Origin: an uncultured virus (IMG/VR IMGVR_UViG_3300044639_000880)
Taxonomy: Duplodnaviria > Heunggongvirae > Uroviricota > Caudoviricetes
Reading direction: 5' to 3' (one strand)
Virus record (IMG/VR): IMGVR_UViG_3300044639_000880
Location: 1 to 64,000 of that record
DNA: 64,000 bases
A program made the translations under genes and the position numbers. A model generated the notes under the pieces. It saw nothing but the letters and a program-made list of their open reading frames with translations, was not told where the DNA came from and ran no database searches. This document shows positions 23,692-56,254 of the stretch, piece after piece (position 1 is the stretch's first letter; the number at the start of each line of letters is the position of its first letter).

Positions 23692-23692
23692 T

Positions 23693-23983: not shown

Positions 23984-23985
23984 TA

Positions 23986-24141: not shown

Positions 24142-24142
24142 T

Positions 24143-24292
24143 ATGGCAAAGCAGATGATCAAAAGAAAAGATGGTAGTGTATCTCAAAGAGGTCTTTGGG
24201 ATAACATCAGAGCTAACAAAGGTTCTGGTAAAGCACCTACCAAAGAAATGCTTAAACAAGAAAAAAAGATTAAAGCTAAAACTAAGAAATAA
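24143..24292 (+). CDS. Small basic protein (49 aa)
   Basis: Translated by hand: MAKQMIKRKDGSVSQRGLWDNIRANKGSGKAPTKEML...; TAATG coupling to the next gene. Confidence 0.75.
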   Translation: MAKQMIKRKDGSVSQRGLWDNIRANKGSGKAPTKEMLKQEKKIKAKTKK

Positions 24293-24564: not shown

Positions 24565-24575
24565 AATAATATACT

Positions 24576-25181
24576 ATGAAAAAAACAACTAACTCAAATC
24601 CATTAAAGTACTTTAATGATGAGAAGGCTAAAAAAGTAGCTAAGCTTACTAAGGCTCAAGATGGGATGAACTATACTCGTAAATATGTATCTAATGTATT
24701 TGACAATGACCAATCTTTTTTAAATAGTACTAAAGAGGCACCTAAGAAATTTAATATTGTAAAAAACATTAAAGAAAAAATTAATGAGTATAAAGAAGAT
24801 AAAGCCAATAGAGATGCTTATAAAAATAGACCAAGATTTACAGCTACATCTGTATTGGTTCCAATACCTGAATCCTATACAAATACAAAAGCTGTGTCTG
24901 ATACTTCTTCTACTAAAAAAGTTAATACTACCCCTACTAAAAAAGTAGAAACAAAAGGTCCTAAAGGAGTAATTCCAGGAACTAGTACAAGTAAAAGTAC
25001 TTATACAGATAAAGATAGTAAACCTGTTTATACAGATACTTCTAGACCTAATGAATACTTTACTATGACAAAAACAAAAGCTGGTCAGGATAGTTTAGCT
25101 CCATACAATTCTCAAATGGGATTATATGGTGAAGTAAGAAAAAAATCAGGTGGTCAAACTAAATCTAAAAAGAAGAAATAA
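24576..25181 (+). CDS. Tag-flanked Lys/Thr-rich protein
   Basis: KLTKAQDG...RKKSGGQTKSKKKK. Confidence 0.75.
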   Translation: MKKTTNSNPLKYFNDEKAKKVAKLTKAQDGMNYTRKYVSNVFDNDQSFLNSTKEAPKKFNIVKNIKEKINEYKEDKANRDAYKNRPRFTATSVLVPIPESYTNTKAVSDTSSTKKVNTTPTKKVETKGPKGVIPGTSTSKSTYTDKDSKPVYTDTSRPNEYFTMTKTKAGQDSLAPYNSQMGLYGEVRKKSGGQTKSKKKK

Positions 25182-38264: not shown

Positions 38265-39293
38265 ATGAGTTATAACTATACCCTTAGATACAGAACATTT
38301 GACCAGCTTCTTGATGCTGCCAGAATAGATCTTACTCAATATGATTTAACTAATTATATTGAACCTCAGCAATTGATTAAAGTTGCTAAAAGAGTTAACT
38401 ATGATCTTGGATTAAGAATCATGGGTACAAAAGAAACTTTATTAGAAGTAAAAAAAGGAAAAGTAAGATTACCCACAGACTTTTATGTATTGAATTATGC
38501 ATTAGTTTGTGATAATGTAACTGTGCACGAGCCCGTAAGCCAAGGCACTTTTATAGAAGAGAGACCTGTAGGAATTCCTACTTATAAATCAATTGGTCCA
38601 GCTGTTATCAACTCTTGTACAGATGGTACTGTTAACTGTCAGACCTGTGGTATTCCTTGTAATACTTGTACTTGTCAACAACTTCCTGCAGCATGTCCTG
38701 CTTTACCGGATGATCAGAGTTATTGTAAAACTCCTAGACTTGAGTTAAACTGTAAAGGTGAGAGCTTTGAATTAGTGCAGATTGTTCATGGTACAACGCG
38801 TACTTATAGAAGGATGTGGCCATTAAGACTTATTACAAATAATGAAACTATTGCTTGTGATTGTCCTAATCTTTATGTAAAGTCTGCAGATCATGCTTGG
38901 ATTCAAGGTGATTTCTTATTTACTAATTTAGAAACAGCTAATATTTATATTAGTTACCAAGGTCAATTAGAAGATGATAATGGAAACTTATTAGTTCCGG
39001 ATCATGATTTACTTAATGAGTATTATGAATATGCTATTAAGCAACGGATTCTAGAGAACTTAATTATGAATGATGAGCCTGTAGGTCAGAAGTTACAATT
39101 AGTTGAAGCAAGATTACGTGTAGCAAAAAGTGCAGCTAATGCTCTTGTGCACACTCCCAATTTTGCAGAGATGCGTGAGATGTGGTGGACTAACAGAAAA
39201 GCTCAGTATGGTAAATACTATGAGGCTTTTAAGTCTTATCCGTGGAACCAACAAAGTAATCCTAATGTTAATGGTCAAATGAATAGATTCTAA
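38265..39293 (+). CDS. Putative tail ring/tubular protein (with Cys-rich insert)
   Basis: V..GKVRLPTDF...ISYQG...DD.G.LLVPD...EYYEYAIK pattern. Confidence 0.65.
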   Translation: MSYNYTLRYRTFDQLLDAARIDLTQYDLTNYIEPQQLIKVAKRVNYDLGLRIMGTKETLLEVKKGKVRLPTDFYVLNYALVCDNVTVHEPVSQGTFIEERPVGIPTYKSIGPAVINSCTDGTVNCQTCGIPCNTCTCQQLPAACPALPDDQSYCKTPRLELNCKGESFELVQIVHGTTRTYRRMWPLRLITNNETIACDCPNLYVKSADHAWIQGDFLFTNLETANIYISYQGQLEDDNGNLLVPDHDLLNEYYEYAIKQRILENLIMNDEPVGQKLQLVEARLRVAKSAANALVHTPNFAEMREMWWTNRKAQYGKYYEAFKSYPWNQQSNPNVNGQMNRF

Positions 39294-42200
39294 TGGCAGA
39301 GCAAAATAACAGTACTAGCAGCAATGACTCAAAGAGTTTTGATAAATCACTTAACAAAGATGTTAATGATTTTCACTTGCCCACCAATGAATGGAGCGGA
39401 GCTAGAAATGCTATAAACAATTCTATCACCGGTGATTTAGGTAAATTAGGTAATGAACCCGCAAACTTATTATGTCTGACAACAGATTTAAAGTATCCTA
39501 TAATTGGGTTCATTCATATTATAGAAGATAAATGGGCTGTGTTTTCTACAGACAGTGTTAATTCTGAAATTGGTCTGTTTGTAGAAAGTAATTGTGGTGT
39601 TCCAGATCCTATAAAGAACCCTGCATACAGTGTTGTTGTTAATGCAGCCTGTCTTAATTTTAAACCGGAGAACCTGATCATAGGTGTTAGCCGTGCTACA
39701 AGTACTTGTACATACAAATTATATTGGGATGATGGTCTTAATCCATCTAGAGTACTTGAGATTGATGTAGATAATCCTCTTAACAATCTTCCTTTTCTTC
39801 CTCCTCCAGCGCCTCCAGGAACTAACAATCCTAACAGTCCTATTCCTTGGGTACAGAACTGTGTTGATTCAAATGGTCCAGCTCCTGGTGGATGTATCAT
39901 CTGTACCAACACTCCGGTTCTAGATTGTGATAAGTTAAGACTTGCTCAATTTATGAGTCCTATTTGTCCTAGAGTAGCTAATGGTGTATCTGGTGGGAAT
40001 CTTTTAAATGGTTCTTACCTGGTTGCTATGGCGTATGCTATCAAAGGCCAAAAAATAAGTGACTGGTATGTATCAAATGTGCAATCTCTATGGACCCAAG
40101 GAAATTCATCAGGATCACTTGATGTCTTTATAGATAGCATTGATCTAGATTTTGATGAGATTCTAGTTACTCTTATCTCAGTAGTTAATCAACAAGCTGT
40201 TGGTAGAGATGCTGGTATATACAGCACACGTCAAACAAGATTAAGCTTTGATATTATTAATGATGCTTGGCCGGCTGTTCCTGTGGAGCAACTTCCAATC
40301 ATGACTCCTATTGTAGATAAGTCAGATGCTATGTATGCAGTAGGTGATTACTTAATACGCGTAGGACCAACAAACAAACAAGACTTTAATTATCAACCCT
40401 TAGCTAATCAGATAGTAGCTAAGTGGCAATCTGTAGAATATTCCGGAGACTATTATGCAAAAGGTGGTAATAAAACTAACTACATGCGCGATGAAGTATA
40501 TGCATTTTTCATCCAGTGGATTTATGATACAGGTGATAAGTCTGCTTCATATCATATCCCAGGTAGACCGGCTTTTCCTAATGATATTACACCAGCTAAT
40601 GTTTTAAATGCTTTTACCGGAGATACTCTTAATTGGCAAGTAGAAAATACAGCAACAGCTATTCCTATAGCTCCTGTACCTCAATCCGATGGTGGAGTTC
40701 TTATAGGAGAAGGTTATATGGGATACTGGGAATCAACTGAATTCTATCCAGATAAAACACCTCAAATATGGAATGCTGATTCACAATGTTGGTCATCATT
40801 AACTCCTAATCTTATACCAAATTGTACAGAACCTATTCCTCCAATTCCTTATCCGGGAACTGTTGCAGGAAATGCTTCATACAATTTATGTGGGACTCCT
40901 ATTAGACATCATAAGTTTCCTGAAGACAATCTTACTGCTGAGACTAACCGATACAATGCAGGCTTGGGCACCACAATAAGAATCATGGGAGTTAAGTTTG
41001 AGAATATCAGAGCTCCTAGAGATAACTCAGGTAATCTTATTCCTGGAATTATTGGATATAGAATATTGAGAGGCACGCGTAATGGTAACAAGACTATTAT
41101 TGCTAAGGGTATGATTAATAACATGCATGAGTATACTGTACCAGGAAGTACTAAGAGTCACTACATGCCTAACTATCCTTATAATGATCTTGAGGCTGAT
41201 CCATTCTTAAGTACTACTAAAACATTTACATCATCTTCCTTTAATCCACTAGGTAATGGTGGTGGTGTTCAAGGAGATACACCCTTTCCAGGAGGTTTTG
41301 GTAGTTTGCAGTTTAGTCCAAACTATGTAACTTTTCATTCACCAGATACTAATTTTAAAGATCCTTTTTTATCAGCTAAAGAACTTAGAATATATCAAAA
41401 TATTCATGGTGATGTTACTGGTAAATTTGAATTATCTGAGAAGCATCCTAGAGAAAAGCTTATGACAGATTATGTATTTTTAGTATCTGCTATAGGTGGT
41501 TTAGGAATTGCTGCTTTAAACTTAAATGGTGAAAGAACAACTAATACTAATGTACCAAATTATCAAGGATTTTCTTATAGAGAGTTGTATTCTAAGACAG
41601 CTGATTATGATTTAGACCATGGGGGAACTAATACTTTACAACCAGGTGGCATACAAACCTATGGCCCAGCAATGCCGAATGCTGGAACATTAACTCAAAC
41701 TACGGGTGCAACCACAAATGTAAATGAGAATACTACTGGTGATGTTACAAATTCTGCACCTATTAAAGCCGGTTTTGCTTCTGGACCAGATCCTGACTTT
41801 TGGGATACACTTCTAATACAAGGTCCTTTAATAACGCAACTTGGATTCTTTAATGCATATGCGGGCACAGTGGGTTTGAGCAATCTTATAGGTGCTACTA
41901 CTGGTTCAGGAGGTCCGGCTGATAGTTTAAAAACTCAAGCTGGTTTAATGAATAATGATGCGGCTATCTTTAATGCGGGTGGCTCTTGGGCATACGGTAC
42001 TACTAATATATCTTACAAGGATGGTCAACAAAATAGAATTCCAAGTTTTTTAAATACAGTTGTAGCACTTCCTACATTCTTAAATTACTTTAGTGATGGT
42101 ACTGATAGTTTTATAAGATTGATTTTAGCTATTTTAAGATATAGAGATTATGCTGTAAGATATCATTCACATGGTTTTTATAATAAGACAGATTTAAAAC

Positions 42201-44689
42201 CTACTGTTTTTAGAACTACTTTAGCTTCTCAACAATATATTGATCCTGAAATACTAGATTATCAACCAGGAGTAGTTGTTAATAATTTATATAGACAAAG
42301 AACTGTTGTCTTAGAGATGGGAAAATCCTTTGGTGTAGATATAGCTCCGCCACCAGTTATTGATAAAACTAGATATGATGCGGCAGGCTTAACTGCTCCT
42401 GGTTTTTGGGATGTTAATATATTTAATAATCCTATATATACTATAGAAGATTTATGTTCAAAAGAAATTACAGGATCTCAAACTAAAAATAATGGTCAAA
42501 TATGTTCATCTTATTATGCTGCTTTAAAAGTAAGAATAGATAATCAATATGGACAACTTAATAGAATAGTACAAGTTCCTATTGATAATTGTTATGTACC
42601 GGTTACAATTAATAAAGTAACTAAACAAATTGTTCCTGGAAAAGGTAACTTTACAAAGTCTTTATTTGGTGGAGATACTTATGTAAATAGATATACAGAA
42701 AAGAATAACTTTCAATTCTTTTATGATTGGTTATATGGAGAACCAGAAGGTGCACAATTTAATTACCAGCAGCACAATATGATTCCATATCCTAAGTATT
42801 GGGCTAATTTTAATAAGTTTCAGACTAGTGATTTTACAACATCTTTTACAGCATTTTTAATTAATCCTGTTAACTGGCCTAATATAGGTAATCCGGGAAC
42901 AATAATTACTCCTAGAGATTATTATGCATTAGATGGTCCTGGTAATTCTGGACCATGGGTTACTAATATTAAAGATAATTTTAGATTTGATAAGAGAGGT
43001 TGGTTCTATTTATTTAATTCTGGTATCAGAGACTTCTTTGTAGAGAGTGAGATAAATCTAGCACAGCGTGAGCGCGGAGAGCTACAAGCTGAAAGATTTT
43101 ACAATCCTTACTTTGGAGGAAACTCAAAAGATCTAACAACAACTGATATTATTAAAGTAGGTAATTATTATAAGTATGATGAGTCATTAAGTATAGCTAA
43201 GTTATTTATTAACTATGCATCTTGGGCATCAACTCAATCACCAAGTTATAATCCTTATATAGCAGAGACTTGTTTTCTGTATCAACCTAAAAGAGTTATC
43301 TATTCTTTACCAGCTCAGTTTGAAGGATTAAGAGATGGATGGAAAATCTTCTTACCTAATAACTATCAAGATTTTCTTAATATTGTTACTTGTATAAAGC
43401 CTGTAAATAAAAGTGGTGCTATGATATTCTTTGATGCAGCTAGTCCTGTTCAATTTCAAGGCACTGATCAATTACAAACAGACTTAGGTACCAAGCTTAC
43501 TATTGGTGATGGTGGATTATTTACTCAACCTCTACAAGCTCTTATTAATGTTGATGCATCTCATGAGTATGCTAGTTGTCAAAATAGATTAAGTGTTATT
43601 AATACACCAGCTGGTTTATTCTGGATGAGTCAAAACCAAGGTAAAGTATTTAGTCTTGCTGATGGTATCAAGGAAGTTTCTAATATTAATCTTAAGTGGT
43701 GGTTTGCAAAATATTTACCTTATAAGATCATAGAAGATTTTCCTGATTTTGCACTAATAGATAATCCTGTAATAGGTGTAGGATGTCAATCTATTTATGA
43801 TAATCAAAATGGCTTAATTTATTTCTGTAAAAAAGATTATATTTTAAGAAAAGATATAACTGAGACTCTTACTTATGTTGGATCAAATAAATTTAAAGTA
43901 GTTGAAACAGGCGCTCCTGTTATACTTGGTAATCCTTTATTCTTTGAAGATGCTAGTTGGACAATAAGTTATGATCCTAAAACTGGAGGTTGGTTAAGTC
44001 AACATGATTGGCACCCAACATTAAACATGCCGGGTAAGAATACTTTCATGACAGTTAATCCTACAGATAAGAAAGGTATATGGATACACAATACAAGATG
44101 TGATCTTTATGCTAATTACTATGGTAAGAATTATCCTTTTGAAGTAGAGTTCATAGTTAACAGTGGACAGCAAATTAATACTCTAAGAAGTATTGAGTAC
44201 ATCATGGAGGTTTATAAGTACGCGGAGAATTGTTATGATAGATTCCATGTATTAGATTTCAACTTTGATGAAGCTGTTATTTACAACACGGAGCAGGTCT
44301 CAGGTTTACTTAAGTTAAATCTTAGCCCACTGAATAATCCATTTGGTTTATTAAACTATCCTGTTGTAGGCCCAACTGATATTCAGATCCTATTTACTAA
44401 GAAAGAGAACAAATACAGATTTAATCAGTTCTGGGATATTACAGATGATAGAGGAGAATTCTTCAATCCAGCTATTCCAGGATTTGCTCAAAGACCTATT
44501 TGGGATACCAAACCAAATGGTTATATTAGAACTCTGAATCCTAGTAACTTAAATTATAGTAAAGATCCTTTTCAAAGAAAAAAATTCAGACACTACACTG
44601 TCTCTGTTTTATTAAGAAGAAAAGTATCCGGAGATAAGAAGATGCTAGTGATGATAGCAAATGTTAAGAACCTTTATTCACCAAGATAA
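39293..44689 (+). CDS. Tail stabilisation / muzzle protein (beta-propeller type)
   Basis: 1798 aa; LNKD....W..ARN..N N-terminus, YWDDGLNP.R, YMRDEVY.F, WTISYDP...W.S.HDW.P motifs; precedes the cargo genes. Confidence 0.78.
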   Translation: MAEQNNSTSSNDSKSFDKSLNKDVNDFHLPTNEWSGARNAINNSITGDLGKLGNEPANLLCLTTDLKYPIIGFIHIIEDKWAVFSTDSVNSEIGLFVESNCGVPDPIKNPAYSVVVNAACLNFKPENLIIGVSRATSTCTYKLYWDDGLNPSRVLEIDVDNPLNNLPFLPPPAPPGTNNPNSPIPWVQNCVDSNGPAPGGCIICTNTPVLDCDKLRLAQFMSPICPRVANGVSGGNLLNGSYLVAMAYAIKGQKISDWYVSNVQSLWTQGNSSGSLDVFIDSIDLDFDEILVTLISVVNQQAVGRDAGIYSTRQTRLSFDIINDAWPAVPVEQLPIMTPIVDKSDAMYAVGDYLIRVGPTNKQDFNYQPLANQIVAKWQSVEYSGDYYAKGGNKTNYMRDEVYAFFIQWIYDTGDKSASYHIPGRPAFPNDITPANVLNAFTGDTLNWQVENTATAIPIAPVPQSDGGVLIGEGYMGYWESTEFYPDKTPQIWNADSQCWSSLTPNLIPNCTEPIPPIPYPGTVAGNASYNLCGTPIRHHKFPEDNLTAETNRYNAGLGTTIRIMGVKFENIRAPRDNSGNLIPGIIGYRILRGTRNGNKTIIAKGMINNMHEYTVPGSTKSHYMPNYPYNDLEADPFLSTTKTFTSSSFNPLGNGGGVQGDTPFPGGFGSLQFSPNYVTFHSPDTNFKDPFLSAKELRIYQNIHGDVTGKFELSEKHPREKLMTDYVFLVSAIGGLGIAALNLNGERTTNTNVPNYQGFSYRELYSKTADYDLDHGGTNTLQPGGIQTYGPAMPNAGTLTQTTGATTNVNENTTGDVTNSAPIKAGFASGPDPDFWDTLLIQGPLITQLGFFNAYAGTVGLSNLIGATTGSGGPADSLKTQAGLMNNDAAIFNAGGSWAYGTTNISYKDGQQNRIPSFLNTVVALPTFLNYFSDGTDSFIRLILAILRYRDYAVRYHSHGFYNKTDLKPTVFRTTLASQQYIDPEILDYQPGVVVNNLYRQRTVVLEMGKSFGVDIAPPPVIDKTRYDAAGLTAPGFWDVNIFNNPIYTIEDLCSKEITGSQTKNNGQICSSYYAALKVRIDNQYGQLNRIVQVPIDNCYVPVTINKVTKQIVPGKGNFTKSLFGGDTYVNRYTEKNNFQFFYDWLYGEPEGAQFNYQQHNMIPYPKYWANFNKFQTSDFTTSFTAFLINPVNWPNIGNPGTIITPRDYYALDGPGNSGPWVTNIKDNFRFDKRGWFYLFNSGIRDFFVESEINLAQRERGELQAERFYNPYFGGNSKDLTTTDIIKVGNYYKYDESLSIAKLFINYASWASTQSPSYNPYIAETCFLYQPKRVIYSLPAQFEGLRDGWKIFLPNNYQDFLNIVTCIKPVNKSGAMIFFDAASPVQFQGTDQLQTDLGTKLTIGDGGLFTQPLQALINVDASHEYASCQNRLSVINTPAGLFWMSQNQGKVFSLADGIKEVSNINLKWWFAKYLPYKIIEDFPDFALIDNPVIGVGCQSIYDNQNGLIYFCKKDYILRKDITETLTYVGSNKFKVVETGAPVILGNPLFFEDASWTISYDPKTGGWLSQHDWHPTLNMPGKNTFMTVNPTDKKGIWIHNTRCDLYANYYGKNYPFEVEFIVNSGQQINTLRSIEYIMEVYKYAENCYDRFHVLDFNFDEAVIYNTEQVSGLLKLNLSPLNNPFGLLNYPVVGPTDIQILFTKKENKYRFNQFWDITDDRGEFFNPAIPGFAQRPIWDTKPNGYIRTLNPSNLNYSKDPFQRKKFRHYTVSVLLRRKVSGDKKMLVMIANVKNLYSPR

Positions 44690-47600
44690 TGAAGCAGAAC
44701 AAAGTACCTAAGAATGAATACACAAACGGGGAACCTTCTCCTTATAGAAAGAACCCTTTCAATAAAGATGTATTCTATGGAGATGATGGTCAATATGCAC
44801 ACCCTGGTCAAGTAACTAGAATACCTGGTGATGCTTTTGGTACTCATATAACAATGAAAGGTATCAATCAACCTTTGTATGCAAGAGATGATCAAGGTAA
44901 TGAACAGATGATGCAACCTGGTGAAGACTATACTTTTCCAGGACAGTATGTTACTGAGTATCCTCAAATACAAACAGCTCAATATGGTGAACAATTTAAT
45001 ACTTATGAAGCAGATCTTATATCTAAAGTATTAATGAATAGAAACAGAGATAAAGACTTTGTTAAAAGAGCTTATGATGTAGGAGCTTATCCTGATTCTA
45101 ATATGTTTACAGGATTAGATACAGAAGATTTTGGAAATAGAATGAGTCATAAAATGTCTTGGGGTGAAGATGATTCTGGACAAGCTTATATGTATCCTGA
45201 TATTTATAATCCTAACAATGAAGCTATAAAAGTTCCTAATCAATATGCAGATTATATATCTTCTGAAGGATATAAAAAAGCTACAGGAATGCCTGTTAAA
45301 AAATATGGTGGTGGACTTTTAAACAAGACTCTCACTTGTCCTAGTTGTGGTTGGTCTTGGAAAGCTGCAGATGGTGGTAAAGATATTGCAACATGTCATA
45401 AATGTGGAGGTACAGCTAAACTAGCTTATGGTGGAATACCTATGGCTCAAGAAGGATTTGAAAATCAAGAAGATCCTATAGCTCATCTTAAGTGGGGTAA
45501 GTATATTGATGATCCTAACAGAAGAAAACAACACATAGTTGATGTTTATCAATATCTTATGGATTCAAGATGGGATCCTAAGAATATTGTATCTTTTATG
45601 AAAAATGTAGGTGGCTATGGTTCTAAAAGCAGAGGGTCTCTTGCTAAGAGTGGAGCTGATTGGGGTTGGGATAATGAAGATATTACCAATGAAGTTTTAG
45701 GAGAAGCTTGGGATGACTATTACAACAAAGTAAGAAAGATTAAAAGCAAGCAAGCTTATGGCGGAAATCCTTCTCTACCTAACATAGAAAGTCATTATCA
45801 AAAAGGGGGCACTAAAATTTATACAGATAAAGCATTATTTGATAAAGCATACAAAGCTGAAACAGATAGTTTAAATCTTTATAATTTATCTAATCAATTA
45901 GTAAGAGGTAACTATGGATTTTCAGATAATTATGAATTTCCAGCAAATCCTAAATATTGGGAAGATTATAAAATTAAGTATAATCCTTCTGGTTTTACAA
46001 AAGACATTAATAATAATAAAATACCAATAGGTAGTAATAATACTAGAAAAGAAGTAGAAGCAAGTCTTAAAAGAAAAATTAAACCTCTTGGTTATACTTA
46101 TTCTGATTTTGCGGTACCGGTATATAAAAAACCAGTAATACATAATGTATATCAAGAACCTGTACCAGAAGCTGTCAAAGAACAACCTAAGAAAACAGAA
46201 GCTTCTAAGAAAGATTATCATCACAGACAAGTTGATTTCAGTAGTCCTTATGGTGCAGTGATGAAGTACTATGATGAGGCAGGAAAAGTAATAAGAGAAG
46301 AACCTTACAAAAAACCTTTTGGTGGTATACATAGTAAGACTCATACTCACATGCAAGAAGGTGGATGGTTAGATGACCTAGACAAATATCAAGGAGGCGG
46401 CTGGGATGAAAACTTTCAAAGACCTGGACCAGTTGCTGAAAACTCTATACCTGTTGCTAGCCCATCTTTTAATCCTAAAATATCACAAGAGTTTATACAG
46501 CAAAATGTTACTCCTTATTCTTATCAACTACCTCCTTTAAGAACTTTTAAAGATTTTAAAGGAAAAAGATCTAGTCCTGCTGTAGATTATAAGGATTACC
46601 TGGATTATAAATGGCATAGTGATAGAAATGATTTAGAATCAGCCGAAGATCTATATCAAAGGAGAGGAGAATGGGAGAATGAGATATTAGGATCAGAATT
46701 CTTAAAAGACCCTGAAATAAAAGCTTTTACAAAACTAGATAGGCTAGATGATGTTTATTATGATAAAAGTAAAGAAAACCAATATTATATTCCAAGTGGC
46801 AAAAAAATAAAACTTACACAAGGCAGATATAATCTTGGTAAGATTGATACAGGTCTTATAGATGAGGTTGTAAAAAAAGCTAAACAATACGGTGTTGATC
46901 CTTTAGATATATTATCAATTGCTGGTAGAGAATCTACTTTTGGACAACCTTATGGTGACCCAAGTAGTGTGAGACGAGAGAATGATTTAACAGAAGTATT
47001 TAGTGCCTGGGCAAATTCTGAGGCAAATGATGGTAATTTTTATAACTACTTTGGAAAAAAGAAACATCCAGGACTAAAGTTGGTAAAAAATAAAAGTGGA
47101 TGGAACTACCGTCCTGAAGATGAAAGCAAAAAAACTCAAATATTTACTCAAGAGGATGTAGATGAGTATTTAAAGTACAGACAAGAACAAGAAAAAATAA
47201 AATCTAAAGATAATGCTTTAGATTTTGTAGCAAAGAAGATAAAGAACAAGGAGCTTCATAAGTATAATCCTGGAGATCCTGATTATCAAAATAAACTTGC
47301 TAATGAGAAAAAACTTTTAGCTCAAGAAAAAGAGTTGATGAAATATCTTAAAAGTAACAAAGAAGATCAATTAACAACTAAACAATATGGTGGCTGGCTA
47401 GATGAACTAGATGAAGAATACAGAAGAGGTGGTATGGTTAATCCTCTAATGAAATCTAGAAGTAAGAGATCAGGAACATCTAAGAATATCCAGTCTTCTA
47501 TTAATAAGCTCTTCTTAAGAAACCGTGATATATTTGGACCAGGTGGTAAGAATATTTATGATCCAAAATCTAAGTATCAAGATGGTGGAGATCTTCCTAA

Positions 47601-49956
47601 AGCTCAGCTAGGAGCTCTTCTAAAGAAAGGTGCAAAGGCTGCATTAAAAGTTGCTAAGTCTGCATCACCTCACGGAAGTTGGACTCATGTAGAAGCTATA
47701 AAACCAAGAACAAAACTTGAAAAAGTTATTGATGTAACAAAAAGCTTAGCTAAAGATGTAGCTCATAATGTTGACAAAAAAATAGTAACACCTATTCAGT
47801 TTAGAAAAGACATAAAGCAAATAAAAAACAAAGCTGCTAAACAGCATGAGTATTTTCAAAAACCTGAAGTTGTAAAAAAACTAGAAGATATTGGAGCAAG
47901 TCCTTCTGCTATAAAATTTTTGCAAAGACCTAACCAGGTTGATCTATCTTTTGTACCTAACATTGGAAGTCATTATGATACAGTATTTGATCATATAAAC
48001 ATAGACATGAGACAAGCAAAAAAGTTGTCTAAAAAGCTTGGTATGACACCAATGCAAGCTTATGAACATGAGTTAGGTCATAAAATACAACAAAATATAG
48101 ATCTAGGTTCTGCTGAGTTTCAACAAAAATATGCTAAGTATAAAAAAGATCTTGAAGACTATACTATTAGAAAAGGTTTACAAAGTAATACATCTAGTTT
48201 AGATCCTATGGCTGTAAGAAACATGTCAGACTTTGTAAAGAACATGGATATTCCACTGCCTCCTAGAGCTACATCTAAACCTACTCTTTTAGATAAACAA
48301 GCTGCTGGTATGCTTAGACTTAGAGCTAAGGATAAAAAATTACTTACACCAGAAGAAAAGAAAATACTTCATTACTACCACTCTGAATATCCAGATCAAG
48401 GTATATCAAAAATAGGTTATGATATAGAACATGGTGCAGAAAGAGTTCCTCATTTAAGAGAGATGAGACAAGCTATGATTGATAAAGGTCATATAGAAAA
48501 TGAACTATCACCTATTACTGAAGATATTGTAAGAAACTTTATTAAAGAAAATCCTAGTAACAGAATAGCTCAGTTCATGGATCCTAACTTTAACATTAAC
48601 TATAAAAAGCTTGTTAAGACATTTAAACATTTGCCAGCTCTTGCTCCTATTGGAATAGGTGCTGCTGCTTTACAAGAAGAAAAAGATGGAGGTTGGTTAG
48701 ACAAAGCTCAACTTGGTAAAATTATAACTAGACCTTTAACACTACTTACCAAAACAGAAATGTTAAGTAAAAAAGGTAAAAATATGGGTTATAGAAAAAT
48801 AGGTAATGTTGCTGGCTTACAAGATCTTATTAGAAAAAAAGGTGCACAAGCTCCTGCTCCCATGAAAATGAGATCTGGTTTATATGCAGATACACCATTT
48901 TTTGGAATGGGTAAAAAACCTAATGAAAATTATAAAGGTATTTATGCAGTAGAGGTAGATCCTCATAATCCAAAATATAACTGGACATCAAGAGTTGCTG
49001 GAACAGATAATTTAGGAGTAGCACCTATAAATCCTAAAACAGGAGAGCTTATTAAAAACATTCCACTAGAAGACTTAAATGTTTATAGAAAAAAATGGTT
49101 TAGTGATAATTATAAAAGGCTAGATCCAGAAAATCTAGAAGAAGGTTTAAAAAATGCAAAGTTACAATCAGGATTAGAAAATGCTTGGAAGTGGGGTGTA
49201 AGAGGTACTGCTGCTGTTGCTGCTCATGATTATATGTCAAAGGATAGTGATGATTGGGCACCTCAAATACAAAACTATCTAAACATAAAACAAAAAGGTG
49301 GAAACAATATTAGTGAAAGCACTTTTGTAAGAAAGCCTATAGTAAATATTAAAAAACCAAATAGACAACCAACAGCTGATGACTTAGCTTGGTATAGTAT
49401 GATGGCTGCTCAAGAAAGACAACCAGATGTCTTACAACAAAAACAAGCACAAGGAAAAGGTAGCAAAGCTTGGGATATTATGATGAATCCTTTTACTGCT
49501 GCCGGTCACATGTATCAACATGGATCAATTCCTGATAATTTTACACAAGGTCCAACAAGTGCATTAGATATAGCACCTCAGTTTGTTAACCCTGTCACTT
49601 ATGCTGAGATGATTTACAACACAGGAAAAGCAGCAGTTAACCCACAGACTTACAAAGACATGGCAAAAACTGCACAAGGTTTAGGTATGAAAGCTATGGG
49701 TAAAGAAGGTCCTGAAGGTTGGCAAGAAGCCGGACTTAATACTTTAGGTATGGGTATAGATGCAGTATTTGCTTTACCAGGTGTAAAAATGGCAAAAGGT
49801 CTTAAGAAAAATATTAGTAAGTCTATAAACAAGTCTATCAATAAGACAGCTAAGGGTATAAAAAAAGGAGTAAGTGAGAATATGAGAAATTATCCAGGGC
49901 CAGCAATTACTCCAACTAACTTTAAAACAGGTGGCTGGCTTGATAATTTACATTAA
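44689..49956 (+). CDS. Modular (polyvalent) putative virion cargo protein
   Basis: Zn ribbon, SLT-like, HExxH zincin-like and possible ART-like modules separated by xxGG/KAQxG/GGWLD motifs. Confidence 0.75.
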   Translation: MKQNKVPKNEYTNGEPSPYRKNPFNKDVFYGDDGQYAHPGQVTRIPGDAFGTHITMKGINQPLYARDDQGNEQMMQPGEDYTFPGQYVTEYPQIQTAQYGEQFNTYEADLISKVLMNRNRDKDFVKRAYDVGAYPDSNMFTGLDTEDFGNRMSHKMSWGEDDSGQAYMYPDIYNPNNEAIKVPNQYADYISSEGYKKATGMPVKKYGGGLLNKTLTCPSCGWSWKAADGGKDIATCHKCGGTAKLAYGGIPMAQEGFENQEDPIAHLKWGKYIDDPNRRKQHIVDVYQYLMDSRWDPKNIVSFMKNVGGYGSKSRGSLAKSGADWGWDNEDITNEVLGEAWDDYYNKVRKIKSKQAYGGNPSLPNIESHYQKGGTKIYTDKALFDKAYKAETDSLNLYNLSNQLVRGNYGFSDNYEFPANPKYWEDYKIKYNPSGFTKDINNNKIPIGSNNTRKEVEASLKRKIKPLGYTYSDFAVPVYKKPVIHNVYQEPVPEAVKEQPKKTEASKKDYHHRQVDFSSPYGAVMKYYDEAGKVIREEPYKKPFGGIHSKTHTHMQEGGWLDDLDKYQGGGWDENFQRPGPVAENSIPVASPSFNPKISQEFIQQNVTPYSYQLPPLRTFKDFKGKRSSPAVDYKDYLDYKWHSDRNDLESAEDLYQRRGEWENEILGSEFLKDPEIKAFTKLDRLDDVYYDKSKENQYYIPSGKKIKLTQGRYNLGKIDTGLIDEVVKKAKQYGVDPLDILSIAGRESTFGQPYGDPSSVRRENDLTEVFSAWANSEANDGNFYNYFGKKKHPGLKLVKNKSGWNYRPEDESKKTQIFTQEDVDEYLKYRQEQEKIKSKDNALDFVAKKIKNKELHKYNPGDPDYQNKLANEKKLLAQEKELMKYLKSNKEDQLTTKQYGGWLDELDEEYRRGGMVNPLMKSRSKRSGTSKNIQSSINKLFLRNRDIFGPGGKNIYDPKSKYQDGGDLPKAQLGALLKKGAKAALKVAKSASPHGSWTHVEAIKPRTKLEKVIDVTKSLAKDVAHNVDKKIVTPIQFRKDIKQIKNKAAKQHEYFQKPEVVKKLEDIGASPSAIKFLQRPNQVDLSFVPNIGSHYDTVFDHINIDMRQAKKLSKKLGMTPMQAYEHELGHKIQQNIDLGSAEFQQKYAKYKKDLEDYTIRKGLQSNTSSLDPMAVRNMSDFVKNMDIPLPPRATSKPTLLDKQAAGMLRLRAKDKKLLTPEEKKILHYYHSEYPDQGISKIGYDIEHGAERVPHLREMRQAMIDKGHIENELSPITEDIVRNFIKENPSNRIAQFMDPNFNINYKKLVKTFKHLPALAPIGIGAAALQEEKDGGWLDKAQLGKIITRPLTLLTKTEMLSKKGKNMGYRKIGNVAGLQDLIRKKGAQAPAPMKMRSGLYADTPFFGMGKKPNENYKGIYAVEVDPHNPKYNWTSRVAGTDNLGVAPINPKTGELIKNIPLEDLNVYRKKWFSDNYKRLDPENLEEGLKNAKLQSGLENAWKWGVRGTAAVAAHDYMSKDSDDWAPQIQNYLNIKQKGGNNISESTFVRKPIVNIKKPNRQPTADDLAWYSMMAAQERQPDVLQQKQAQGKGSKAWDIMMNPFTAAGHMYQHGSIPDNFTQGPTSALDIAPQFVNPVTYAEMIYNTGKAAVNPQTYKDMAKTAQGLGMKAMGKEGPEGWQEAGLNTLGMGIDAVFALPGVKMAKGLKKNISKSINKSINKTAKGIKKGVSENMRNYPGPAITPTNFKTGGWLDNLH

Positions 49957-49962
49957 TTTTAA

Positions 49963-49970
49963 TATATTTG
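49963..49970 (+). promoter_or_regulatory. Bacteroidota -7 promoter-like element
   Basis: TATATTTG 4 nt before ATG 49975 (would give a near-leaderless mRNA). Confidence 0.4.
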
Positions 49971-49974
49971 TACT

Positions 49975-52794
49975 ATGACCAAAGATGAGATTTTAAATGG
50001 CATGTCAGAGCAAGAGTTCTACAGCATGTATCCTACTAGAGAGGCTTGGGAACAGTCTCAACAAGAAATGGCCTATGGTGGTTCTCCTTTTATTCAAGGC
50101 TTTCCTTTTGGTGCTGGTATAACAATGGCACATGGTGGAACTCCTTATTATGGTGGTCCAATTTATCCAGCTCAAGATGGAATACAAACTCCAGGATTTG
50201 ATAGTACTAACATGGTTCTTACAGGACAAGATAATCTTAGTGATCAACAAATAGCAAATGCTAACTTAAAGTCGTTAGGTAATAATGAATATATAAACAG
50301 TGAAGGTGATAGCCGCTTTGTAAAGAATGTTAATCCAGTTGTAGTTCCTTTTAATCCTTATGGTGTACAATCAAAAGGAAAATTTGCCAATAATCCTAAT
50401 TCTTTTCTTAATACAGGAATTCCTGGAGTTAGCACTTCAACAAATAATAGTTCTGTAACAGATCAACAAGTTAATACTAAAGTAAGAGGTTCAGTACTTC
50501 CTATTCTAGGAAAAAAACAAAAATATGGTGGATTGCCTGGTGGGCCTCATCAATATGATATGCCTTGTATGAATTGTGGTGGTTATATGGAAGATGGCGG
50601 TAATGCTAGTCCATTTAACTACGGAGCATTTCCTGCTATGCAAGGTGGTGGTGATCCTAATGATTTATGGTTAGCTCAACAACAATTAGCTTTAGAAAAA
50701 AGAACTAAACAAGGTGTTCCTTCCGATGTTAAACCTACAGGAACTAATCCTCTTAACTTTAATCCTTACATTAAAGGAAGTGATATTGCTCAGACTGATT
50801 CTATGCATACTAGTCCTTACAATCCTAACATTGCTGCTTACTTTAAAGGTAATAAGATGATAGCAGGACCTGCGCAAAATACAGGACAAGCTATTAAAGC
50901 AGCAAGGAAAGTCAATACCGGAAAGTTTTATAAAAAAGATAATGAAATCTACCCTAACTATCAACAAGATGGTGGAGGATTTATTAATGATGGAAGCTAT
51001 CCTCAAATGAATTTTGGTGGAATAGATTATTCTAGTACTATTAATGATGTGTTTTCTAAATACCAAAAGAAGTCTGGTGGAGTTACTAGTCAAGGAGGTA
51101 ATCAAAATTTGATTAAGAAACAACAAGCTGATTTTTACAATGCTATTCAAAGCAATGTGATTAATAAGTTCAATCAAGATGAACGCGATATAGCAAACCA
51201 GGTTACACAACAAGCTACTCAAGAAGTTGATCAAGCTTATCAAGGATATCAAATGGGTGGTGGTCCAGGAATGAGTTATGGTTATAATGCATATGGTGCA
51301 CCTAACTTAGATAATCAATATAATCAAGAGATGCTTCAAGCTAAACTTGATAGTTATAATGATCAACATGCTTTAGATAGAGAGAATATGCGCGGAGCTA
51401 ATCAAATGCTTGCAGGTTATATTGATCAAACATTAAGTAATAGAAGAGCCGGTGCACAAGAAGCAATGGGTATGTATAAAGCTCAATCTGGTGGTGATTG
51501 GGATGCTGCTTGGGCTCAACAAGAAGCTGAAGAAGCTCGGAGAACAGCAGCCTACTCTATAGAAAAGAAAAAAGCTAAAGAAGCTTATATAAATAGTCTT
51601 AGACAAAAAGGTAAAACTGCTGAAAATACTCAAAATCTATCATGGTCTCAACAAGCAATGCAAAGCTTTGGACCAGATAATAGACTTAATGGATTTAATT
51701 ACTTTCCTGGTAATGTTGGTAGAGGGTATGAATTTGGTAAAGCTGATATGGCTAAGTTATCAAAGCTTACAGCTAACGATCCTCTCACAGGTGTACAACT
51801 TAATTATGGAAGATTAGGTAGAATGGCTCCAAGATTTTTTGGTCCTAAGTCTATTACTTTTGGTACAGTGAATCCTAATAAAGGTTACTTTGAAGATCTT
51901 AAAGAACCTGTTTCATATGATCAATCTCAACAACAAAATACTGATGTAAATTATTTTAAAGAAGATCGTGAAGCAACAAAAAGAAGAGCTGAGATAGCTA
52001 AGATTGGACCAGATGCTTATAAAAGAAACCAAGCATTTGATGATATGAGTTGGAGTGAAAAAAGAGCTTCTAAAAAAGCTATGAATCAAAATCTTAATCA
52101 AAATATTGACCAAGAAAAAAGATTTGAAAAATCAAAAAAAGCAGTAGGAGCTGTGGATACAGAAAATGCTTATGGTGGATTATATAAAGCTCAAGAGGGT
52201 TATGAAAATCCTTTGGCTTTCAAACCTACTCTAACAGAAGATGACGGTATGGATATCATGCCGCCACCAATGTCTGTTGCTAATAAACCAGTAGATCCAA
52301 ACTATAATCCTTTTACTGATCAAGCTGCTATTCAGAAAAGAAGACAAGAACAAAGAGATATGTTTGGTCCTCCTATAGATGATCAACCAGATATCATGGC
52401 TCCCGATTCTGTTACAGCTAAATCAAAATTAAAAGGTGTAAAAAATTTAATAGGTCAATATGCAGTACCGGGTATTAACAAGTTAGCTAATATGTTTGAA
52501 CAAGATGATCGTGAGAATAGCGAAAGAGCATTAGAGCAAGGTATGTTAGCTGATAATGCTAAAGTAACAAGACCCGCTAATGCTTTTAATATGGGAACTT
52601 ACAATGTTAATTCAGGAGACTTTAGAGAGAATCAAAAAAACTCTAGTCAATATCCTGGATTTAATGCACAATTTGGTGGATTCAATACTATGCAAATGGG
52701 TGGAGGAATGGATGATTCATGGGAAGATGATTTAACTGAAGATGAAATTGAGAACTTAAGAGCACAAGGATATAACATTGAATATTTAGATTAA
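49975..52794 (+). CDS. Low-complexity putative virion cargo protein with more than 15 xxGG/AQxG motifs
   Basis: MAYGG, MAHGG, PAQDG, KYGG, MEDGG, MQGGG, QDGG, KKSGG, YQMGG, KAQSGG, AYGG, KAQEG, AQFGG, MQMGG. Confidence 0.7.
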   Translation: MTKDEILNGMSEQEFYSMYPTREAWEQSQQEMAYGGSPFIQGFPFGAGITMAHGGTPYYGGPIYPAQDGIQTPGFDSTNMVLTGQDNLSDQQIANANLKSLGNNEYINSEGDSRFVKNVNPVVVPFNPYGVQSKGKFANNPNSFLNTGIPGVSTSTNNSSVTDQQVNTKVRGSVLPILGKKQKYGGLPGGPHQYDMPCMNCGGYMEDGGNASPFNYGAFPAMQGGGDPNDLWLAQQQLALEKRTKQGVPSDVKPTGTNPLNFNPYIKGSDIAQTDSMHTSPYNPNIAAYFKGNKMIAGPAQNTGQAIKAARKVNTGKFYKKDNEIYPNYQQDGGGFINDGSYPQMNFGGIDYSSTINDVFSKYQKKSGGVTSQGGNQNLIKKQQADFYNAIQSNVINKFNQDERDIANQVTQQATQEVDQAYQGYQMGGGPGMSYGYNAYGAPNLDNQYNQEMLQAKLDSYNDQHALDRENMRGANQMLAGYIDQTLSNRRAGAQEAMGMYKAQSGGDWDAAWAQQEAEEARRTAAYSIEKKKAKEAYINSLRQKGKTAENTQNLSWSQQAMQSFGPDNRLNGFNYFPGNVGRGYEFGKADMAKLSKLTANDPLTGVQLNYGRLGRMAPRFFGPKSITFGTVNPNKGYFEDLKEPVSYDQSQQQNTDVNYFKEDREATKRRAEIAKIGPDAYKRNQAFDDMSWSEKRASKKAMNQNLNQNIDQEKRFEKSKKAVGAVDTENAYGGLYKAQEGYENPLAFKPTLTEDDGMDIMPPPMSVANKPVDPNYNPFTDQAAIQKRRQEQRDMFGPPIDDQPDIMAPDSVTAKSKLKGVKNLIGQYAVPGINKLANMFEQDDRENSERALEQGMLADNAKVTRPANAFNMGTYNVNSGDFRENQKNSSQYPGFNAQFGGFNTMQMGGGMDDSWEDDLTEDEIENLRAQGYNIEYLD

Positions 52795-52798
52795 TAAC

Positions 52799-54919
52799 AT
52801 GGCAAGAGTTAGAATAACCAAAACACCTAAAGCTCTATCAGGGCTTGAAGTAAAGATGAAGGATATGAAATCAGGATTGTATGGTACTAATGGTAACCGT
52901 CAATTTAGTTTACCTAATCAAATACAAAGCAGTAGATTCTCAGAACCTCTTACTGAGGTGAGAAATACTTTACAACCTGTAGCTAGAGAAAGTGCTAACC
53001 TTGAAGCTGAGAGAGGTGAAACTGCAATAGTTAATATGGGAGGTATGCCAGCACATTTTAAGATTGGTGGCAAGAGACATTCAGAAGGTGGTACTCCATT
53101 GAATCTTCCTGATAACTCTTTTATCTATAGTGATACTGCTAAGATGAAGATTAAAGATCTTATTATCCAAGCTCAGTTTGGTATGGTACCAAAAAAGTCT
53201 GGATACACTCCGGCTGAGATCTCTAAGAAATATGATATCAATAAATTCAGAAAAGTTCTAGCTGATAAAAACTCAGAACCAGTTGAGAGAAAGACTGCAG
53301 AGATGATGATCTCTAACTACAACTTAAAATTAGCTAAGCTAGCTTTAATACAAGAATCAATGAAAGGATTCCCTCAAGGAATTCCTCTTGTAGCTATGCC
53401 TTATATTATAGAGAATGAAATGGATGCCTCTCAATTCTTACCAGATCAAGCTCAAGAACAATTAGAAGGAGCTGAACAACCAGATGCTGATACCGGTGAA
53501 GCTAGATATGGTGCTAATGTTATCTCTACATGGGACACACATAGATATGGTGGTATACCTAAAGCTCAGTTTGGTGTTAATACAACTATGGACTCTGTTC
53601 CAAGATTTGATCCAGCATTGATAGCTCAACAAGTTGCTGCAGAAGAACTTGCAGCTAAACAAAAAGGAACAATGACAACAGGGTCAGCTCCTAGAACAGT
53701 AACAGGTACTCCTTCATACAATGTACCTTTACAAATAAATGATGGAGAGTATCAACAAACAGAACCTGATATGTTTACAAAAGCTTTACAAGGTGTTGGT
53801 GCTATTATGGAAGCTCCTCAAAGAGCTATGATGTATGCTGGTACAAGTATGTTTGGAGATGAAAACTATGAAATGACTAATCCAAAAACTGGTAAAAAAG
53901 AATGGATAGATAAAGATATTGTTGATATAAGAATGAAACAAGGATATACACCTACAGGTAAAAAGAAAACAGGATTTTATGAAATGCCATCTGAAACATT
54001 AGAAAGAGGATATCCTGATGCTTCTCCTGCTCTTAAGTTTGCATCTGATGTTTTTGGTGATCCTTTGCTTCCTGTAACAGCATGGAAAACTGCAGGAAGA
54101 TTAGCTACTAAACAAATATCTAAACCTTTAACACAAGCTATTTATCAATCTAAAGGAACACTAAGCAAAACAGAAGCTATTAAAAATTTAGGTCCTAAAC
54201 TATCACCAAGAAAAAAAGAAATAGCATCTAAGGTTTATGATAAGATAATGGATGCTTATAAAAAGAATCCATCAGTTGATGAAGCTAAACTATTAAAGAT
54301 AGCGGCCCCTGCAGCTCATAATGCTGCAATAGCTCATGATGCTGAAAAAGCTTCAAAAGAAGCTGTTAGAATAGCTAGAGAAGCTGCAGAAGAAGTTGCT
54401 AGAAAAGCAGAGTATGCATATGTTTATGGTATTGAAAAAGCTAAAGAAATATATGATAAAGCACATCCAGTAATCAAAAAAATTGCTAAAGGAACAAAAA
54501 AAGTTGCTGAAAAAGTTTATAATGCTGTTGATGATCCTTACTTAGGACCAACTTTTAAGATGGCTGGAAAAAATATAATCACTTCAGGAGGTAAAACTAT
54601 ATTTGCAGATGAAGCCAAGAAAGAAACTAAATACTATAAAAATTTAGCACAAGAAGAAAAAGAAAGAGCAAACAAAGCAGAACAAAAATCAGACAGTTTA
54701 AGTGTGCTTTTAGCTAAGAAACCTAAAGAATCTGAACAGAAATATGGTCCTATTATTAGTAATAGTATTGGCCAACTTGGGCCAGGTTCTATAGCAAGAA
54801 AAAATTTAGCTACAGGAGAAGAAGAATGGTTTGATCAAAAAACTGGTAAACCATGGGCTGGTAATGTAGCTCCAGCAGATACCACAAGTAAAGTAACACC
54901 TGTTCAAGGAGATTGGTAA
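52799..54919 (+). CDS. Putative virion cargo protein
   Basis: N-terminal EAERGE...GKRHSEGG...FIYSD domain recalled from crAss-like cargo proteins; internal RYGGIPKAQFG. Confidence 0.7.
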   Translation: MARVRITKTPKALSGLEVKMKDMKSGLYGTNGNRQFSLPNQIQSSRFSEPLTEVRNTLQPVARESANLEAERGETAIVNMGGMPAHFKIGGKRHSEGGTPLNLPDNSFIYSDTAKMKIKDLIIQAQFGMVPKKSGYTPAEISKKYDINKFRKVLADKNSEPVERKTAEMMISNYNLKLAKLALIQESMKGFPQGIPLVAMPYIIENEMDASQFLPDQAQEQLEGAEQPDADTGEARYGANVISTWDTHRYGGIPKAQFGVNTTMDSVPRFDPALIAQQVAAEELAAKQKGTMTTGSAPRTVTGTPSYNVPLQINDGEYQQTEPDMFTKALQGVGAIMEAPQRAMMYAGTSMFGDENYEMTNPKTGKKEWIDKDIVDIRMKQGYTPTGKKKTGFYEMPSETLERGYPDASPALKFASDVFGDPLLPVTAWKTAGRLATKQISKPLTQAIYQSKGTLSKTEAIKNLGPKLSPRKKEIASKVYDKIMDAYKKNPSVDEAKLLKIAAPAAHNAAIAHDAEKASKEAVRIAREAAEEVARKAEYAYVYGIEKAKEIYDKAHPVIKKIAKGTKKVAEKVYNAVDDPYLGPTFKMAGKNIITSGGKTIFADEAKKETKYYKNLAQEEKERANKAEQKSDSLSVLLAKKPKESEQKYGPIISNSIGQLGPGSIARKNLATGEEEWFDQKTGKPWAGNVAPADTTSKVTPVQGDW

Positions 54920-54940: not shown

Positions 54941-56254
54941 ATGGGAAAAGAATCCGGCCTTAAAGCAACTACCATTTCAAAAGATGGTACTAAATTAAGA
55001 GATGAGTATAATGATGGAACATTTGGAAATGTAAGACCAAATCCTAATTATAAAAAAGAAGAAAAGCCTAAAGAAGGCAAATCTTCTACTACAAAAGAAC
55101 AAGGTGAACCACCTTTGTTAATTGAACCTTATGCTTATAATACAGATAAGTTACATCATTCTAAATATGATAAAGCTCAGTGGAGAAAATGGGCTCAAGA
55201 AACAGGATTTAAACCTAAAAGTAGAACAGTAGCTGGGCAAAATAAAGAATTCCAATTATATTTATTGCAAGATGATAAATTTAAAGACAAAGTAAAAGCT
55301 ATTCATAAAGAATTAGGTATGCCTTATGCAGGTAAACCTGATGATGAATTTCTTGGAGAAAGATGGGATAAGATAATGGAAAAGCTTACAACTGAACCAG
55401 AAAAACAACCAGAACCAGAAAAAGATTTACCTGAGCTTACTGTTAAGAAAGATGAAGAAAAGCCAGCAGAAGAACAAGATGTAAAGAGAAACACACCACA
55501 AGGTGTAACTGGAAACAGAAGAGCTCCTTGGTGGTTACAAGATATTATTAAAACTTCTGGTGCTGCAGCTGACTTAGCTAGAATAAAGAAGTATGATCCT
55601 TGGCAAGATACTCCACAAGTATTTTTACCTAATGCTACTTATTATGATCCTACACGCGAACTAGCTGCTAATACTGAACAAGCTAATTTAGCTAGTCAGT
55701 TTCATCAAGCATTCACTGGTCCTAAGTCAGGAGCTATATCTGGAGTTCAAGGTAAAGCTTTGGATAATGCTGCTAATATAATGGCTAAGTACAATAACTT
55801 AAATGTTGGTTTAGCCAATCAACTATCTCAAGAAAGAGCAAGTATCTTGAATCAAGCTTCTCAAAATCAAGCTGGTTTAAATACTCAACTTTTTGATAAG
55901 TATACTATAGCTAATCAAACATTTAATACCTCTAAGAATATGGCCCGCCAGAACTTGAGACAATCTTATATGGATGCTATCACTAATAGAGCTAAGACAC
56001 AAGCATTAAATACTTTATATCCTAACTATTACACAGATCCTTCTGATGGAGGATATCTTACTTTTAATCCTAACTATACACCAACTCCTACTTATAAAGG
56101 TGATACTAATGAATTTGATGAAGCTGTAAAAAAATATGGTAGTGTAGAAAATGCTAGTAAGTACATGGATTGGAAATATCGCAAGGCATCTAAAAAAGCT
56201 TCATCAGATTATCCATATGAAGGATATGAAGGATATCAAGGAAATGAAGTATAA
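54941..56254 (+). CDS. Putative virion cargo/ejection protein
   Basis: Charged N-half; Gln/Asn/Ala-rich helical C-half (YDPTRELAANTEQ) typical of ejected proteins. Confidence 0.65.
   Translation: MGKESGLKATTISKDGTKLRDEYNDGTFGNVRPNPNYKKEEKPKEGKSSTTKEQGEPPLLIEPYAYNTDKLHHSKYDKAQWRKWAQETGFKPKSRTVAGQNKEFQLYLLQDDKFKDKVKAIHKELGMPYAGKPDDEFLGERWDKIMEKLTTEPEKQPEPEKDLPELTVKKDEEKPAEEQDVKRNTPQGVTGNRRAPWWLQDIIKTSGAAADLARIKKYDPWQDTPQVFLPNATYYDPTRELAANTEQANLASQFHQAFTGPKSGAISGVQGKALDNAANIMAKYNNLNVGLANQLSQERASILNQASQNQAGLNTQLFDKYTIANQTFNTSKNMARQNLRQSYMDAITNRAKTQALNTLYPNYYTDPSDGGYLTFNPNYTPTPTYKGDTNEFDEAVKKYGSVENASKYMDWKYRKASKKASSDYPYEGYEGYQGNEV

Follow-up and report, generated by a model that had tools for sequence, protein, structure and literature searches.

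The DNA considered here is a stretch of 64,000 nucleotides, called the window below, from an uncultured Caudoviricetes virus (IMG/VR record IMGVR_UViG_3300044639_000880, positions 1 to 64,000), which is a crAss-like phage. Three consecutive cargo open reading frames (ORFs) of the window, 44689 (44689..49956), 49975 (49975..52794) and 52799 (52799..54919), are punctuated by a single protein-level motif: Y, M, F or A, then Q, K or A, any residue, Gly and usually a second Gly. Modules are exchanged at this motif, and the ends of adjacent cargo proteins carry matched tails and heads that switch together, with copies of a protein's own tail also present inside it. We give a probability of about one half to the reading that these end handles, with the motif as a joint, constitute an assembly code that chains the cargo to a portal-bound C1 domain and leaves it largely uncut. 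The cargo ORFs and their parts, the cluster of small ORFs, the capsid gene and the muzzle-like gene named below lie on the + strand.

One motif in the cargo proteins

An earlier note on this DNA had described two separate tags in the cargo, KAQxG and xxGG. These are one motif in register, with KAQxG lacking only the second Gly. All 12 strings quoted from 44689 and the one from 52799 are present, although two spacers are longer than had been written (3 residues after MQEGGWLD and 5 after KQYGGWLD). Using a regular expression (regex) that was broadened after the data had been viewed, the motif is found 19 times in 44689, 13 times in 49975 and 3 times in 52799. More than 15 copies had been claimed for 49975, where a previous regex gives 15 and a higher count needs looser variants. 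The 35 copies compare with a shuffle mean of 2.9 (maximum 10 among 1000 shuffles). The motif is also frequent in a cluster of small basic ORFs at 22070..25181, eight of which carry it close to one terminus or to both (16 copies versus 0.8 shuffled), so that one short signal is common to unrelated small basic proteins, in relatives too. There is no enrichment in the other 41 ORFs of the window (6 copies versus 5.7 shuffled).

The same holds in relatives. Eighty related loci were gathered via the muzzle gene and counted with a narrower regex: their cargo holds 872 motifs versus 79 shuffled in 220 unique ORFs, an 11-fold enrichment that is diluted, as the class includes some C2 and endonuclease ORFs. 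Outside cargo no clear enrichment is seen at these loci (muzzle 49 versus 31 shuffled, upstream ORFs 18 versus 20, C2/RNAP-type ORFs 9 versus 13). For later tests, eight C2- or endonuclease-type ORFs were removed and the rest reduced to 194 at 70% identity. The logo of these 194 ORFs has information at position -3 (Y, M, F, A), at -2 (K, Q, A) and at the Gly-Gly, with little downstream, and tandem copies peak at a spacing of 6-9 residues. The motif also occurs in crAss001 gp45 (7-8 copies), in phi14:2 gp080 and gp081 and in p-crAssphage gp47 and gp48 (partly by eye), and the residues from -3 to -1 ahead of the Gly-Gly are conserved among the gut, marine and present phages.

The Gly codons at the motif match background usage, so the constraint acts on the protein and a DNA-level signal is rejected. 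The motif is absent from the major capsid protein and was found by eye in only 1 of 46 scaffold C-termini, which rejects a scaffold release site.

Modules meet at the motif

The cargo proteins are built of modules whose boundaries coincide with the motif. Here, motifs and decoy windows of equal size were masked before alignment and internal alignment ends were counted: 330 of 999 ends lie near true junctions (194 expected), versus 129 near decoys (212 expected), and both alignment partners are at a junction in 204 cases versus 46 for decoys. Module gain and loss among relatives, which the earlier note had suggested comparing with the motifs, does occur at them. In 44689, the modules that end at motifs in relatives are the first one, a Zn-ribbon-like module (45313..45426; sub-cut-off Pfam matches) that is flanked by motifs and has identical boundaries in four relatives (L174, L177, L179 and L184), a 47-aa module at residues 915-962 and a zincin-like module (47614..48678). 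The right edge of the last, at junction 1334, is a motif followed by WLD in 4 homologues and the natural C-terminus in the protein P0163.

A module encoded as a gene of its own in one genome can be found fused directly behind the motif in another, in agreement with the earlier idea that the small genes are free-standing versions of cargo modules. Three untagged free modules of the small-ORF cluster (at 23986, 24143 and 24292, the last being DUF6321) are fused in this way in relatives. The motif lies just upstream in 3/3 unique contexts for DUF6321, 2/2 each for PTNP and GLWDNI, 4/5 for WIQ and 7/7 for KNIQSS, counts in which copies inside one family may share a single origin.

Scanned as whole proteins, the three cargo ORFs match nothing in Pfam or PHROG. 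Of 15 Pfam stretches found in 37 cargo proteins of relatives, 14 are free of internal motifs (by eye). The claim that motifs fall between domains holds to this extent; it fails for DUF5872 in L154 and for FKIGG, at residues 87-91 of 52799, which lies inside a folded domain. The effector domains of relatives' cargo include SLT, YkuD, glucosaminidase, lysozyme and PG-binding domains, with weak signals in the window: the module at 46402..47379 has a lytic-transglycosylase signal below cut-off (SLT_2, E 0.03) and a clear SLT match in relative L126. Two modules of 44689 had been said to repeat the small-gene layout. Module 976-1330 does, but 1344-1533 has the amphipathic start and no real hydrophobic stretch. 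Nor is such a stretch general ahead of junctions (3/623 in relatives versus 12/1998), and this candidate feature is rejected.

Could the motif be an evolutionary seam only, a flexible Gly-rich fusion linker and recombination anchor that no protein reads? The clustering of alignment ends and the internal junctions that copy former ends, described below, would suit such a seam. Against it stand the protein-level constraint, the conservation of three residues ahead of the Gly-Gly beyond what a linker needs, and the presence of the motif at the ends of single-module small proteins. We consider a mere seam unlikely.

Matched tails and heads

The ends of the three proteins are distinctive. The first, 44689 (1755 aa), is a string of variable modules that ends in a type W handle, the motif plus a WLD tail (49921..49953), and it contains three internal copies of motif plus WLD with the first Gly at 558, 901 and 1334. 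The second, 49975 (939 aa), in which many motif copies are tandem, has at residues 1-24 the partner head of the WLD tail and ends in a type A handle, the motif plus an acidic module of ~25 aa (52690..52791). The third, 52799 (706 aa), starts with the N-terminal type A handle, a basic strand with a KAQxG-type variant behind it (52799..52843), and continues with the probable C1 domain, a paired motif (Gly 251 and 259) and a variable module. Both links are present in the window.

Handles were scored in 140 adjacent ORF pairs with regexes tuned by eye. The acidic tail and basic-strand head occur together in 69 pairs (tail only 3, head only 8, neither 60), and the WLD tail and its own head in 16 (tail only 1, head only 1, neither 122). 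The two WLD-type misses are a single pair interrupted by an inserted gene. When the first cargo link was placed on a muzzle tree (53 of 74 loci with cargo), 16 loci were WW, 13 AA, 19 neither and 5 half-scored, and none of the 53 joined a W tail to an A head or the reverse. Handle type changes on this quick tree 3 times for WW and 6 times for AA, of which well-supported branches force only 1 and 4.

Internal WLD copies are found in 15/17 WLD-ending ORFs versus 0/177 others. Internal acidic copies occur in 9/73 acidic-ending ORFs, 2/104 others and 0/17 WLD-ending ones. The motif lies between handle and payload in 12/17 WLD tails, 61/73 acidic tails and 43/75 basic heads (background 17%). As judged from co-occurrence, the handles probably link cargo proteins in gene order, and their matching points to pieces that are held together at least during assembly.

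Two further observations concern these boundaries. Probable homing endonuclease genes sit at cargo gene boundaries in relatives (L130:13860-14474, L117:11220 and L126:1643), and one of them splits a WLD tail from its head. In four loci (L155, L156, L176 and L185), the basic strand usually found as an N-terminal head instead comes directly behind a motif at the C-terminus of the first cargo ORF, a hint of a third pairing type.

A probable C1 domain and crAss001 gp45

Profile scans (Pfam and PHROG) show that the window encodes a crassvirus major capsid protein (18464..20101; PF23898), two ring proteins and a muzzle-like tail protein (39293..44689, placed by gene order relative to crAss001), which served as a control without motif enrichment. 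A virion RNAP ORF with a DFDxD motif lies downstream of the window end. By gene order, the three cargo ORFs occupy the position of cargo protein C1 (gp45) in crAss001, between the muzzle and C2/RNAP genes, and they are probably pieces of C1. The annotation of their positional equivalents in phi14:2, gp080 and gp081, records detection by virion mass spectrometry. The products of 44689, 49975 and 52799 are most likely packed in the phage particle as well.

Only 52799 probably has a portal-anchoring domain. Its residues 50-205 (52946..53413) are predicted to fold with confidence (pLDDT >90), and the top Foldseek match is 7qog_M (E 0.14; Z 4.9, rmsd 4.6, 100 aligned); hhalign against C1 gives E 0.001 at a probability of 20%. 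Each score is weak, but they are concordant. Searches of 52799 gave no Pfam match, PF25725 included, and nothing significant in PDB or phage-record sequences. The C-terminal half of C1 is a separate gene here (54941..56254), lacks the motif and is fused to the 52799 homologue in genomes G002 and G003. A locus search with 56319 returned this genome only.

According to the accessible text of the crAss001 structure paper (PMC10172136), the tail contains residues 214-245 of gp45 and the portal carries residues 425-552; both stretches fall inside one motif-bounded module each. Chain M of 7QOG has 126 residues, aligned to residue 551, and as it reaches at least this residue the model starts at or before Gly427. 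The Gly-Gly of this one crAss001 site thus appears to be modelled on the portal-bound domain, which speaks against cleavage behind the two glycines at this position; the chain might still be cut immediately ahead of them or between them. Neither the motif nor any cleavage is described in the accessible text, where 'cleav' occurs 0 times.

A proposed assembly code, cut or uncut

In the reading we favour, the role of the single crAss001 protein gp45 would be spread over several genes, with only 52799 anchored to the portal. The other pieces would be recruited in gene order by short complementary handles: the WLD tail of 44689 may dock on the head of 49975, and the acidic tail of the latter on the basic strand of 52799. 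Y/M/F/A-Q/K/A-x-G-G, which is found between handle and payload and between payloads, would be the joint, which probably bends at the Gly-Gly and is recognised by a single shared assembly partner. New payloads such as cell-wall enzymes, zincins and basic peptides would be added as cassettes of payload, joint and handle, so that internal junctions are retained former ends, as observed for WLD-type proteins, and these may provide further places for docking. In the small basic genes the joint would serve as a loading tag. The chain would then be packed and ejected largely uncut. Consistent with this, motifs in tandem at 6-9 residues and tails of 5-8 residues would yield useless products if cut.

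Several points weigh against this reading. C2 and RNAP cargo lack motif enrichment, so the motif is not a universal packaging tag. The logo is one-sided and resembles a protease site. In fused DUF6321, PTNP and GLWDNI, the Gly-Gly replaces the initiator Met-Ala within 0-2 residues. The two motif-bounded parts of gp45 are 420 Å apart, one in the tail and one in the head. No gel band fits full-length gp45, as explained below. The counts of handle pairs are not phylogenetically independent and come from eye-tuned regexes. Finally, tail-head binding is inferred from co-occurrence, and the common reader of the motif is putative.

Several of these points would suit a different second step, in which the handles load the chain as an address label and a protease then cuts at every motif, inside the virion or once the chain has been ejected, so that handles are removed and payloads freed. 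The uncut and cut readings have the loading step in common and differ only in the cut. The motif would here be a proteolytic stop and start, the bond would lie before or within the Gly-Gly, and the best candidate cutter would be a zincin associated with the RNAP. The one-sided logo, a motif that stands in for Met-Ala and for a stop codon, and its place between handle and payload all favour such a cut. In addition, the portal-bound model of gp45 begins at a motif, and the separate tail and head locations of its parts would need no threading. Yet Gly427/428 is modelled with the portal-bound domain, capsid and scaffold are without sites, and some heads lack Gly entirely. A cut after loading is a tentative second choice.

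The gel evidence is ambiguous. The 13 gel-band peak lists in the accessible part of PMC6235969 were re-fingerprinted against 43 crAss001 proteins, with bands assumed to run from large to small, and this recovered gp47/50, gp49/44, the portal, gp22/23/25/26, gp32, gp36 and gp29. Full-length gp45 is absent from the 70-100 kDa bands. Its best band score is 5 versus 1.8, but 4 peaks are accounted for by gp22, and Arg-ended peptides in bands 5-10 number 0-1/11 for gp45 versus 4/7 for the portal. The accessible list of peptides named for gp45 1-424 includes neither motif-spanning tryptic peptide of <30 aa (PMC10172136). Although these absences agree with cutting, 0/2 motif-spanning versus 5/9 other named peptides is not significant, and gp46, which is motif-free, is equally missing from the fingerprints, so the absence of gp45 is weak and non-specific for cutting. 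A 15 kDa band considered as a gp45 fragment is gp29, and that candidate is rejected. The zincin-bearing gp47 runs at full length, which also speaks against cutting.

Candidate proteases

It had been stated that no dedicated protease is identifiable in the window, which is too strong. The zincin-like module of 44689 has an HExxH at His1127 (48067-48081), with no Pfam or PHROG match and an Atlas lead to LPD23 at 0.88 only. HExxH modules inside cargo occur at just 12/74 loci, a further point against general cutting. The better candidate is the virion-RNAP ORF (4307 aa; G000 65121; L013:7066-19989), which starts 1.1 kb past the window and has a zincin-type HExxH at 694. An HExxH of this type is found on RNAP-associated ORFs in 4/4 genomes checked (crAss001, G002, G003 and G001, a 122 kb record rated complete and identical to the window in both genes compared) and in phi14:2 gp076, in favour of the cut. 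The RNAP-linked zincin is already known; cleavage of either the RNAP polyprotein or peptidoglycan has been put forward as its role (10.1101/2020.03.07.982082).

The earlier note had also proposed that one recognition and cleavage machinery releases the payload. The shared recognition motif stands, whereas cleavage is hypothetical; the Gly-Gly modelled on the portal-bound domain of crAss001 gp45 speaks against a cut after it at that one site. A form of this idea that extends to the whole order is a two-layer code, in which handles chain cargo onto the portal and the Y/M/F-x-x-G-G site is then cut before or within the Gly-Gly by a virion-borne zincin, which would release enzymes and basic peptides; we hold this to be less likely than not.

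Other candidates fared less well. Pfam profiles detected no cysteine protease among 40 ORFs of the window and another 47 of G001; small ORFs were unscanned and remote homologues could be missed. A hunt for proteases in the Atlas gave unnamed clusters only. The ORF at 20856 was rejected, with no protease match, though its N-terminal half was barely examined; it has a pLDDT of 95, no invariant residue among 88 homologues and BFVD matches that are crassvirus proteins, and its C-terminal end resembles the RecA C-terminal domain (Z 10, rmsd 1.8, 61 aligned). Also rejected is a DUF2201 metallopeptidase, which is encoded beside an AAA ATPase on the opposite strand and has no match in G003.

A ubiquitin-like system was also considered, in which a JAB protease would uncover a Gly-Gly at the C-terminus for ligation by an E1 (ThiF). 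Its appeal comes from crAss001, where ThiF (gp76, E 8e-16) and Prok-JAB-like (gp77, E 5e-4) genes are adjacent (L113:23583-28066, gp75-gp78). Each family is found in 0/5 motif-rich genomes of the clade (3 rated complete), with controls positive in 12/14 and 8/14. This largely refutes the scheme for phage-encoded enzymes in the clade, and we regard it as highly improbable.

Other genes of the genome

The 20856 ORF (20856-21872), which follows the capsid gene at the position of crAss001 gp33, is highly conserved and lacks annotation; it is a candidate assembly or DNA-binding factor. It has structural relatives across crassviruses, and its phi14:2 equivalent bears no annotation as virion-found. 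The scaffold-position protein (17165-18421) has in most relatives a conserved tail of the Arg-Pro ... Phe-Phe-Lys-Arg type, likely a capsid-binding motif. A Dps/ferritin-like gene (DUF5856; 26073-26573) lies in the structural module, and some relatives have another ferritin-like ORF in the same place (by eye). Between 29125 and 36882, ORFs of 1429, 488, 403 and 238 aa are unusually Cys/Pro-rich and without Pfam hits; they are probably fibre or decoration proteins.

The RNAP-associated cargo ORF at 59123-64000 has a weak PD-(D/E)XK nuclease match at residues 1265-1416, and the 4307-aa virion RNAP ORF has a C-terminal 2OG-Fe(II) oxygenase-like domain (E 3.5e-7, at cut-off). In the replication arm of G001, the AAA ATPase and its DUF2201 vWA/metallopeptidase partner (L014:15395-17833) are found, as is a ClpS adaptor gene (L015:12552-12848).

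Relation to known cargo systems

The motif and handles are apparently unpublished: the literature searched, which left most subscription journals outside, contains no description of either. In nonribosomal peptide synthetase and polyketide synthase (NRPS/PKS) assembly lines, terminal docking domains form pairs, the C-terminal element of one gene product being complementary to the N-terminal element of the next. The cargo ORFs likewise have complementary tails and heads on consecutive genes that switch together, but they encode phage virion cargo, and tail-head binding is putative. The papain-like proteases of adenovirus, ASFV and coronaviruses cut polyproteins at Gly-Gly with an upstream hydrophobic residue and little downstream constraint. 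In the present motif, the hydrophobic residue is one position further upstream and the second Gly is optional.

The closest system is C1 gp45 of crAss001 (Bayfield et al. 2023, PMC10172136; 7QOG chain M; PF25725), which shares the post-muzzle position, the probable portal-binding domain and the motif. Unlike it, C1 is here spread over four genes, is much longer and has matched end handles and enzyme-like payloads. Polyvalent proteins of phages and conjugative elements, as described in the accessible part of Iyer et al. 2017 (PMC5512222), also combine several unrelated effector modules in one polypeptide that is delivered with the DNA, and zincin-like peptidases are proposed there as their processors. 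In that text they have no shared junction motif or handle pairs and 'crAss' has 0 occurrences, whereas the HExxH is optional here.

The capsid targeting sequence and internal proteins of T4 (PMC9026906), with the propeptides of SPN3US (PMC7411985), offer a further parallel in the parts of these sources available: a short peptide is common to unrelated cargo, and the proteins are small, basic and variable. T4 gp21 removes the capsid targeting sequences (PMC9026906), and targeting and cutting may be combined in one signal, as may hold here (PMC9026906, PMC7411985). The T4 signal is N-terminal only, and the prohead protease also cuts capsid and scaffold; the present motif occurs internally as well as at both termini and is missing from capsid and scaffold.

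The motif and handles bear on how crassviruses select, pack and free a cargo of several megadaltons. The motif joints account for the free addition and swapping of payload modules in crassvirus cargo. As the motif extends from gut to marine members and the two handle pairs are switchable, exact residues and peptides are at hand for testing both loading and the role of the RNAP-linked zincin. If true, the two-layer code would explain why parts of gp45 are found in separate compartments of the virion and would offer a means by which selected proteins could be loaded into gut phages and set free.

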